Made by a program: the position numbers and the translations under genes
Shown: positions 1,111 through 2,198 of the stretch, piece after piece
How the letters are laid out: each line of letters begins with the position of its first letter
How positions within the stretch are numbered: position 1 is the stretch's first letter
Notes under the pieces: model-generated
The model's database searches: none
What the model was told of the DNA's origin: nothing
Seen by the model: only the letters and a program-made list of their open reading frames with translations
Origin: a virus
Taxonomy: Duplodnaviria; Heunggongvirae; Uroviricota; Caudoviricetes
Virus record (IMG/VR): IMGVR_UViG_2541047172_000012
Strand: one strand, 5' to 3'
DNA: 5,663 bases

Positions 1111-1824
1111 ATGAGCGCAAAAAAGAAACCATTAACACAAGAGCAGCTTGAGGACGCACGTCGCCTTAAAGCTATTTATGAAAAAAAGAAAAATGAACTT
1201 GGCTTATCCCAGGAATCTGTCGCAGACAAGATGGGGATGGGGCAGTCAGGCGTTGGTGCTTTATTTAATGGCATCAATGCATTAAATGCTTATAACGCCG
1301 CATTGCTTGCAAAAATTCTCAACGTTAGCGTTGAAGAATTTAGCCCTTCAATCGCCAGAGAAATCTACGAGATGTATGAAGCGGTTAGTATGCAGCCGTC
1401 ACTTAGAAGTGAGTATGAGTACCCTGTTTTTTCTCATGTTCAGGCCGGGATGTTCTCGCCTGAGCTTAGAACCTTTACCAAAGGCGATGCGGAGAAATGG
1501 GTAAGCACAACCAAAAAAGCCAGTGGCTCTGCATTCTGGCTTGAGGTTGAAGGTAATTCCATGACCGCACCAACAGGATCCAAGCCCAGCTTTCCTGACG
1601 GGATGTTAATTCTGGTTGACCCTGAGCAGGCTGTTGAGCCAGGCGATTTCTGTATAGCCAGACTTGGTGGTGATGAGTTTACCTTCAAGAAACTGATCAG
1701 GGATAGCGGTCAGGTGTTTCTACAACCACTAAACCCGCAATATCCAATGATCCCATGCAATGAGAGTTGTTCCGTTGTGGGGAAAGTTATCGCCAGCCAA
1801 TGGCCTGAAGAGACGTTTGGGTAA
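1111..1824 (+). CDS. cI: CI repressor (237 aa), lambda immunity specificity
   Basis: Full-length ORF with the HTH region [21 protein letters not shown] and the C-terminal autocleavage domain identical to lambda CI. Compared with my recalled lambda sequence it shows a few substitutions (MSAKKK vs MSTKKK, ILNVS vs ILKVS, AEKW vs AERW, SGSA vs SDSA), several silent changes, and TAA instead of TGA as stop. Confidence 0.97.
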
Positions 1825-2198
1825 AGAGGATAGATGGAGTTTAATGGCCATGAGTATCAAGCGGTCAAAAAGAAGTTCATCTATTCATTGAAAGCATAAG
1901 GCCATCTGAGTATATCCGTAATGATCTGGATATTGTCTATAACATCAATGACCGGACGATAGATATCGGTGAGCAGCGTCCTGTATGGCAGGGTGAGGCA
2001 GGTGAAAAAACGTCCTGCCATCAACAAGAATCAAGTGCATCCGCTCTCTGGACAGATGGAAAATTTATTGGATGCAAAAAGATATGAAATAACACCTGTA
2101 TAGCACGGAGCTTTCTCTGACCGATGCACTTGAAGTTGTTAGGGCTGACCCAGCCTGCTGTTTCTTTAGGTAAGAGAAAAGAGATTTAGGAGATGAAA

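Follow-up and report, generated by a model that had tools for sequence, protein, structure and literature searches.

The window analysed here (the whole stretch of DNA, 5,663 bp) is a lambdoid early region in the orientation opposite to that of the lambda map. Positions 1-1820 match lambda (NC_001416) 39050-37231 in a single ungapped BLAST alignment of 98.46% identity, with 28 mismatches. The match is renewed at 3149-3264 (87.5%), starting at the rexB stop codon (lambda 35826); it shows faintly at 3882-3912 in BLAST; and it returns at 98.0% over 4142-5663, starting five codons before a stop that is common to an 83-aa open reading frame (ORF) and lambda ral. The rexA-rexB interval of lambda (37230 to 35827) has no homology in the window by BLAST. 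The features of the region are as follows.

1-365, minus strand: 5' part of replication gene O, lambda type, truncated at the edge of the window (98.5% ungapped to lambda, 99.9% to the O157 prophage Sp1)
398-691, minus strand: cII, lambda type (ORF with the coordinates of the Sp1 CII annotation)
810-1010, minus strand: cro, lambda type, 66 aa (ORF and annotations)
1037-1100, no strand: lambda-type operators OR1 (1037-1053), OR2 (1061-1077) and OR3 (1084-1100) with pR/pRM (operator consensus search and comparison with the lambda operators)
1111-1824, plus strand: cI repressor, 237 aa, stop TAA at 1822-1824; protein identical to Sp1 CI
1414-1820, plus strand: segment coding for the cI C-terminal domain, about 95% identical between lambda-type and Sp5-type genes; potential recombination substrate
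1678-1724, no strand: proposed crossover interval, Sp1-type to the left and Sp5/Nil2-type to the right (mismatch pattern)
1819-1833, plus strand: breakpoint, comprising the last cI codon GGG, the stop TAA and then AGAGGATAG with the ribosome-binding site of the first cassette gene
1826-2217, plus strand: decayed DUF3024 gene, ATG at 1834 (81% to the intact OkiPb01678 gene; tblastn matches in three frames)
2195-2225, plus strand: internal terminator-like hairpin and T-run (-15.9 kcal/mol, z = -4.1)
2326-2847, plus strand: 173-aa ORF (H0093 of VT2-Sakai; phrog_2602, a family of unknown function; ORF and PHROGs)
3021-3143, plus strand: 40-aa ORF preceding t_imm (H0092 of VT2-Sakai; phrog_21154; ORF and PHROGs)
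3149-3264, plus strand: conserved t_imm terminator (hairpin 3149-3170 and T-run) with its spacer, which anchors the cassette distally
3311-3386, plus strand: Sp5-type OL operators at 3311-3327, 3344-3360 and 3369-3385; pL with -35 at 3358-3363 and -10 at 3381-3386 (VT2-Sakai annotation and promoter scan)
3576-3848, plus strand: antiterminator N of the P22 gp24/933W/HK97 type, 90 aa (Pfam N_peptide, E = 3e-32)
3846-3899, plus strand: relic 3' end of a lambda/21-type N gene, which translates to CVGRQKMKLGSKPLI and a stop, the C-terminus of OkiPb N
3907-4158, plus strand: 83-aa ORF (H0090) at the ral position, its last five codons and stop common to lambda ral
4142-5663, plus strand: region of lambda homology (98%) with ea10 (4341-4709), cIII (4782-4946), kil (4915-5058), gam (5133-5429) and the start of bet (from 5436)

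The repressor consists of an N-terminal domain of lambda specificity and a shared C-terminal domain, and the exact protein is present in 10,875 blocks of the collection. Kil of the window is common as well (11,855 blocks), and its Ea10 variant occurs in 90.

The lambda match stops at the very end of cI. In a base-by-base comparison the gene ends in ACG TTT GGG TAA AGAGGATAG in the window and in ACG TTT GGC TGA TCGGCAAGG in lambda; the lambda bases had been given in a sequence-only reading of the window, and they match NC_001416 exactly. That reading had the window tracking lambda up to the last cI codon and losing homology from the stop onward, and the alignment agrees on both counts: the ungapped match over 1-1820 ends within the last codon, and the 120 nt past the stop have an ungapped identity of 33%, which is that of random sequence. 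The drop is far beyond chance, as 1.5% divergence over 1.8 kb turns into random identity within 1-3 bases, and its abruptness rules out gradual divergence in place of a breakpoint. Lambda homology does not continue directly downstream of 1824, the next match to lambda appearing only at 3149. The left breakpoint had been predicted within 3850-4340, and strong lambda homology is indeed back at 4142.

The stretch from 1821 to 4141 is a replacement, because the window lacks rexA, rexB, lambda OL/pL, nutL and N as well as most of ral. Thus, what had been described as the edge of a cargo insertion is the edge of an exchange, in which 3.1 kb of lambda (37230-34104) has its counterpart in 2.3 kb here. 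Nor is the stretch a single block: it consists of two modules, 1825-3148 and 3265-4141, split by the t_imm segment at 3149-3264.

The first module (1.3 kb) has no lambda counterparts and contains the decayed DUF3024 gene, the 173-aa ORF and the 40-aa ORF. The DUF3024 gene starts directly past the cI stop with the Shine-Dalgarno sequence GAGGA and its ATG at 1834, and the 9-nt spacing between the cI stop and this gene is also found in OkiPb and in prophages of Morganellaceae. The family was assigned by Pfam on the intact OkiPb01678 copy; the copy in the window has lost a single nucleotide at two places and is interrupted by in-frame stops. The genes of the cassette are oriented like cI. Transcripts from pRM may end at the hairpin at 2195-2225, which makes their extension into the 173-aa gene, and thus its expression in the lysogen, uncertain.

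The 173-aa ORF is the sole sizeable intact gene of the cassette. Full-length homologues of 41-83% identity are found in Salmonella, Cronobacter, Yersinia, Proteus, Providencia, Morganella and Serratia. In prophages of Morganellaceae the order is repressor, intact DUF3024 gene, 173-aa homologue and N; in Serratia it is repressor, a 179-aa homologue and N, with no DUF3024 gene. The family is an old resident of this position, and the E. coli version is one whose first gene has decayed. The protein matches no Pfam family above threshold, and the PADLOC defence models match neither it nor the 40-aa and 83-aa ORFs. Its AlphaFold model (mean pLDDT 72.7) has a confident N-terminal four-helix domain, which a disordered, acidic linker joins to a small C-terminus of beta-beta-alpha type. 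A Foldseek search of the PDB with this model returned nothing at E <= 0.001; the weak likeness to the N-terminal core-binding domains of integrases agrees with a sub-threshold match to Phage_int_SAM_1. A tyrosine recombinase was rejected as an identity for this ORF, the Phage_int_SAM_1 match reaching 14.4 bits against a cut-off of 22.3 and the 173 residues holding no catalytic domain.

The second non-lambda module (3265-4141) carries OL/pL of the Sp5 type, nutL, N and the ral-like 83-aa ORF. Its OL operators read AAATACAAAGCGTTGTA, TAGAACAAATTGTATTG and AAGTACATATCGTACTA, and an operator consensus search of the window found no lambda operator outside OR; the OL operators are therefore not those of lambda, a change that the view of the window as lambda with cargo leaves out. 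The N relic past the stop of the present N gene (3846-3899) is a 100% match to L068, a locus described below, and is the scar of an earlier swap.

Is the boundary at the cI stop peculiar to this sequence, or does it belong to a wider pattern? We compared 11 loci with a lambda-like cI 3' end, including lambda, Sp1, Sp5 (VT2-Sakai), OkiPb01678 (the locus of an intact prophage of a bovine strain), mEp332, HK97, ev099, CL707 and two gut-metagenome contigs (L008 and L009). All pairwise comparisons among these loci give 93-100% identity for the final 120 nt of cI; for the first 120 nt past the stop the identity is 18-37%, except in pairs with a common cassette. At least eight unrelated sequences continue from the same end, ...GAAGAGACGTTTGGN TRA, in keeping with the earlier suggestion that a module boundary at a gene end is typical of lambdoid mosaicism. 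They include rexAB in lambda; a gene for an NYN-domain protein in Sp1 and ev099; DUF3024, a RuvC-family protein and a kinase in OkiPb; and further distinct versions in mEp332, HK97, CL707, L008 and L009. Additional gene sets were seen at this position in contexts fetched for other purposes.

The far side of the variable interval is equally well defined. Homology to the window is regained at 3145-3153 in eight of the nine comparison loci that extend that far; Sp1 regains it only from 3201, and L009 ends before t_imm. The hairpin at 3149-3170 (-14.3 kcal/mol, z = -4.75) corresponds to t_imm as annotated in CL707. Because homology ends at the cI stop and returns at t_imm across the loci, the breakpoint at 1821-1824 is the proximal edge of the lambdoid rex slot, which is bounded by the cI 3' end and by t_imm upstream of OL. 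The cI-N interval is a hotspot of mosaic diversity according to Degnan et al. 2007, as cited in PMC8585504 and PMC7067206, and these two papers place rexAB of lambda and bstA of BTP1 in it.

The boundary at the cI stop has thus been described already and is a clean case of a lambdoid joint at a gene border; the same junction is present in dozens of published genomes of Stx phages. Wild lambda-immunity phages such as HK97, mEp332, CL707 and HK544 offer a close parallel. They have a conserved cI, OR and cro like those of the window, and in them, too, unrelated genes replace rexAB right past the cI stop and t_imm stands before OL (immunity regions from Degnan et al. 2007, Mol Microbiol 64:232, as relayed in PMC8585504 and PMC7067206, and from GenBank records EF120455-EF120460). 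Their OL, however, is of the lambda type and cognate to their repressor, whereas that of the window is of the Sp5 type. Two other parallels concern the cassette. The rexA-rexB genes of lambda and bstA of the Salmonella phage BTP1 lie 3' of the repressor, are expressed in the lysogen and act by abortive infection; they share slot and orientation with the cassette of the window but have no sequence relationship to it. In the cassette of the OkiPb01678 or 933W type (DUF3024, RuvC-family protein and Ser/Thr kinase), the first gene and the junction at the cI stop are homologous to window 1826-2217; in the window, by contrast, the DUF3024 gene carries frameshifts, and the place of the RuvC-like and kinase genes is taken by the 173-aa gene.

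The cassette itself is widely shared. It is 100% identical in more than 40 records of Stx phages, and VT2-Sakai (Sp5), Nil2, Stx2 II, 1717, 2851 and related Stx-converting phages are about 99.9% identical to window 1678-5663, including the boundary GGG TAA AGAGGATAG. Phages of the VT2-Sakai type share with the window the DUF3024 gene in its decayed form, both the 173-aa and the 40-aa ORF, OL/pL, N and the genes beyond; they differ in the N-terminal domain of the repressor, OR, cro, cII and O, which are of another type there and of the lambda/Sp1 type in the window. The same cassette is found in L068, part of a 39.9-kb viral contig, in which OR, the cI N-terminus, OL and N are all of the lambda type. 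L068 aligns with window 402-3264 without gaps at 98.8% and is identical to it over 1678-3255, and its homology to lambda stops and restarts at lambda 37231 and 35826, as in the window. L068 is a proper member of the wild lambda-immunity group that carries the window's cassette. Since both L068 and the Stx phages carry this identical cassette, one cassette stands behind two repressor specificities, lambda-type in the former and Sp5-type in the latter.

These patterns suggest how the slot may be filled. Its genes differ between phages and are always oriented as cI. Cassettes would move between phages by homologous recombination in conserved flanks, for which the likely candidates are the region coding for the cI C-terminal domain, at about 95% identity even across repressor specificities, and the t_imm spacer. 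The sharp edge at the stop codon would then reflect selection against recombinants in which the repressor or the first cassette gene is damaged.

The stop codon is therefore best seen as an old shared boundary, and the window itself switches parent further upstream. A crossover at the stop codon, which the sequence-only reading had implied, was rejected on the pattern of single-nucleotide differences, which puts the crossover at 1678-1724, about 100-145 bp upstream of the cI stop. Against Sp1, a defective lambda-immunity prophage at thrW of O157:H7, the window has one mismatch in 1-1724 and then seven in 1725-1823. Against Nil2 it has 19 mismatches in 1446-1677 and then none in 1678-3848, and against Sp5, to which its homology begins only at 1414, there is one mismatch at 1795 and none in 1796-4619. 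Both flanks are nearer to these prophages (Sp1, 99.9%; Sp5, 99.9%) than to lambda (98.0-98.5%). The most parsimonious account of these patterns, as distinct from a proven history, is that the window has two parents, an Sp1-type lambda-immunity module for 1-1677 and an Sp5/VT2-Sakai-type one for 1725-5663. We word it in this way because polymorphisms of the cI C-terminal region are widely shuffled: the 74-mers that mark the joint also occur in unrelated phages. All the distinguishing differences around the exchange fall in third codon positions, and the CI protein is unaffected by it. Should the cassette have been present in the lambda-immunity parent, as it is in L068, the point of exchange could lie anywhere in 1678-3255, since L068 and Sp5 match the window equally well over that span. 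Taken together, we consider it highly probable that the slot has its edge at the stop codon, that cassettes have moved by way of the conserved flanks and that the window was joined from Sp1-type and Sp5-type sequence inside cI.

The joint inside cI leaves the immunity module in an unusual state. OR, cro and the DNA binding domain of the repressor are of the lambda type, and OL and pL are of the Sp5 type. In the hetero-immune laboratory hybrids lambda imm434 and lambda imm21, immunity modules have been exchanged by recombination in flanking homology, and in viable hybrids OL, repressor gene, OR and cro have all moved together. In contrast to these hybrids, the window is of the lambda type on the OR side only, and its immunity module is therefore split. 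When 67 fetched loci were typed at both OR and OL, 44 were Sp5/Sp5, 21 were lambda/lambda and two were mismatched, namely the window and L007, a 6.8-kb draft contig of IMG/VR that has the same architecture and differs from the window at 18 positions. Among the three contig collections that were searched for the joint, only L007 shares this architecture. The metagenome contigs L008 and L009, which had matched in the search, were rejected as carriers, for they share the 74-mer only and are different lambda-immunity phages. To judge from lambda biology, pL, N and kil would be constitutive without a repressor of the Sp5 type in trans. The pairing seen in the window is thus either an assembly chimera or a hybrid that needs a second repressor.

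We see roughly an even chance that the continuity across 1678-1724 is artificial, and that Sp1 and an Sp5-type Stx prophage from a single O157-like genome were run together during assembly. Even then there would be a true boundary at the cI stop, as a property of the Sp5-type phage alone. Each half of the window is nearly identical to a prophage that resides in O157:H7 Sakai together with the other, the two prophage types have about 400 bp coding for the cI C-terminus in common, and the switch falls within a 47-bp stretch that is one of the two longest over which Sp1 and Sp5 agree exactly. None of the 5,426 complete E. coli genomes spans the joint or reaches 99% identity over 1420-1900 (the best has 96.5%), and the joint is likewise absent from 50,697 phage records, its one other occurrence being on the 6.8-kb draft contig. 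The window and that contig are also the only loci with an OR/OL mismatch among the 67 typed, and longer contigs with the right-hand alleles of the window, found by a search with the Ea10 variant, have an Sp5-type repressor in all cases. The arrangement is functionally incoherent as well, because pL has no operators for the adjacent repressor. An artefact of this kind would have to account, however, for the same joint in two sequences that are not identical (18 differences), and assemblers mostly break contigs at such repeats and do not bridge them.

It is also plausible, though we hold it with less than even confidence, that the joint is real and arose by exchange between a lambda-immunity and an Sp5-type prophage in the shared cI C-terminal region, leaving a hetero-immune segment in which pR is under its own lambda-type CI and pL is repressed solely in trans, by Sp5-type repressor that another phage in the cell supplies. 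The occurrence of the joint in two diverged copies is what such an event predicts, the 409 bp at about 95% identity are an adequate substrate for recombination, and the exchange would have left the CI protein unchanged. An inversion between prophages in a polylysogen could be the route: Sp5-type and Sp1 copies lie in opposite orientation in several O157 genomes (TR01, for example), which permits inversion, and a reciprocal exchange would leave both repressor specificities in the cell. Several observations speak against a real exchange. The joint is absent from the finished genomes and phage records searched; the two prophages of Sakai point the same way, so that the joint would there mean a duplication of about 950 kb or a circle junction; and pL, N and kil would be constitutive unless a repressor acted in trans. 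The reciprocal joint was not identified either: its marker 74-mer occurs in 29 contigs, none of them from the genome of L007, and is non-specific, being a common natural allele.

Finally, a lambda genome with foreign cargo inserted between the cI stop and a left edge in 3850-4340 would explain the high-identity lambda homology on both sides of 1821-4141 but is contradicted by the alignment, and very improbable in view of the missing lambda genes and sites, the lambda-homologous island at 3149-3264 that divides the stretch in two, and flanks that are closer to Sp1 and Sp5 than to lambda.

With the slot and its edge at the cI stop being of a known kind, the unusual points of the window are limited to the immunity module, whose split may be an artefact, and to the conserved, uncharacterised 173-aa gene in the rex slot. 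The slot is a place for accessory or defence genes that are expressed in the lysogen, such as rexAB, bstA and the kinase set of the 933W type. The 173-aa protein, which has an ancestral partner in DUF3024, is widespread: many Stx phages carry it, as do prophages in several genera of enterobacteria. It is therefore a reasonable candidate for a function in exclusion or defence.

The combination of a lambda-type repressor and OR with an OL of the Sp5 type most likely flags a chimeric contig, which matters for the immunity typing of Stx phages. If the split module is real, it is an example of cross-dependence between co-resident prophages. A more specific version, which we regard as somewhat unlikely, is a hetero-immune hybrid in a polylysogenic STEC, in which nothing silences the leftward operon (N, kil, gam, bet and beyond) except the repressor of an Stx-type prophage in the same cell. 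Such an element would be stable only as long as another phage supplies its repressor, and the induction of that phage would unleash both.

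The immunity module of the window is split between two types. The OL operators and pL (3311-3386) are of the type found in Sp5, the VT2-Sakai Stx prophage, whereas the OR region (1037-1100), together with cro and the DNA-binding domain of cI, is lambda-type. Such a mismatch between OL and OR types occurs, among 67 typed loci, only in the window and in L007, a 6.8-kb contig; the latter differs from both the window and Sp5 by two substitutions in the OL/pL region, at the equivalents of window positions 3340 and 3368, one of which falls within the pL spacer. Within OR, the window carries a single-base change from lambda in OR2 (G for A at 1069) and differs from lambda in the OR1-OR2 spacer at 1056; both changes are shared with Sp1, the defective lambda-immunity prophage of O157.

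The switch between the two allele types lies inside the repressor gene itself. In the cI C-terminal coding region, Sp1-type alleles give way to Sp5/Nil2-type alleles between 1678 and 1724, and all differences between the two allele types in this region are silent. L007 is the one contig besides the window that has this hybrid joint. Downstream of cI, in the variable cassette position known as the rex slot, the following features are found:

1826-2217, a DUF3024 gene surviving as a frameshifted relic
2195-2225, strong hairpin followed by a T-run (z = -4.1), between the relic and the 173-aa gene
2326-2847, gene for a 173-aa protein (phrog_2602), with homologues at loci L078-L081

The ribosome-binding site of the relic begins directly 3' of the cI stop codon, and intact DUF3024 copies occupy the equivalent position in the bovine strain OkiPb01678 and in Morganellaceae prophages. 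A NYN-domain gene is an additional occupant of the slot: in intact prophages and phage ev099 a 285-aa NYN-domain gene comes after the identical CI protein (L012 5452-6309; L018 10842-11699), and the post-cI gene of Sp1, ECs_0273 (L004 7952-8341), looks like a truncated form of it.

Directly after the stop codon of the P22/933W-type N gene, positions 3846-3899 hold the last part of another N gene, of the lambda/21 type (encoding CVGRQKMKLGSKPLI and stop), a remnant that is the scar of an earlier N-module swap. High-identity lambda homology returns at 4142-4158, five codons upstream of the stop codon that the 83-aa ORF (H0090) shares with lambda ral, and this resumption is a further joint close to a gene end.

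The 173-aa protein is kept across Enterobacterales, always encoded between repressor and N. Its N-terminal four-helix domain bears a weak likeness to the integrase core-binding domain. An acidic linker separates this domain from a beta-beta-alpha motif that is conserved at the C-terminus. The hairpin at 2195-2225 may stop read-through from pRM, and the 173-aa gene may therefore need a promoter of its own.
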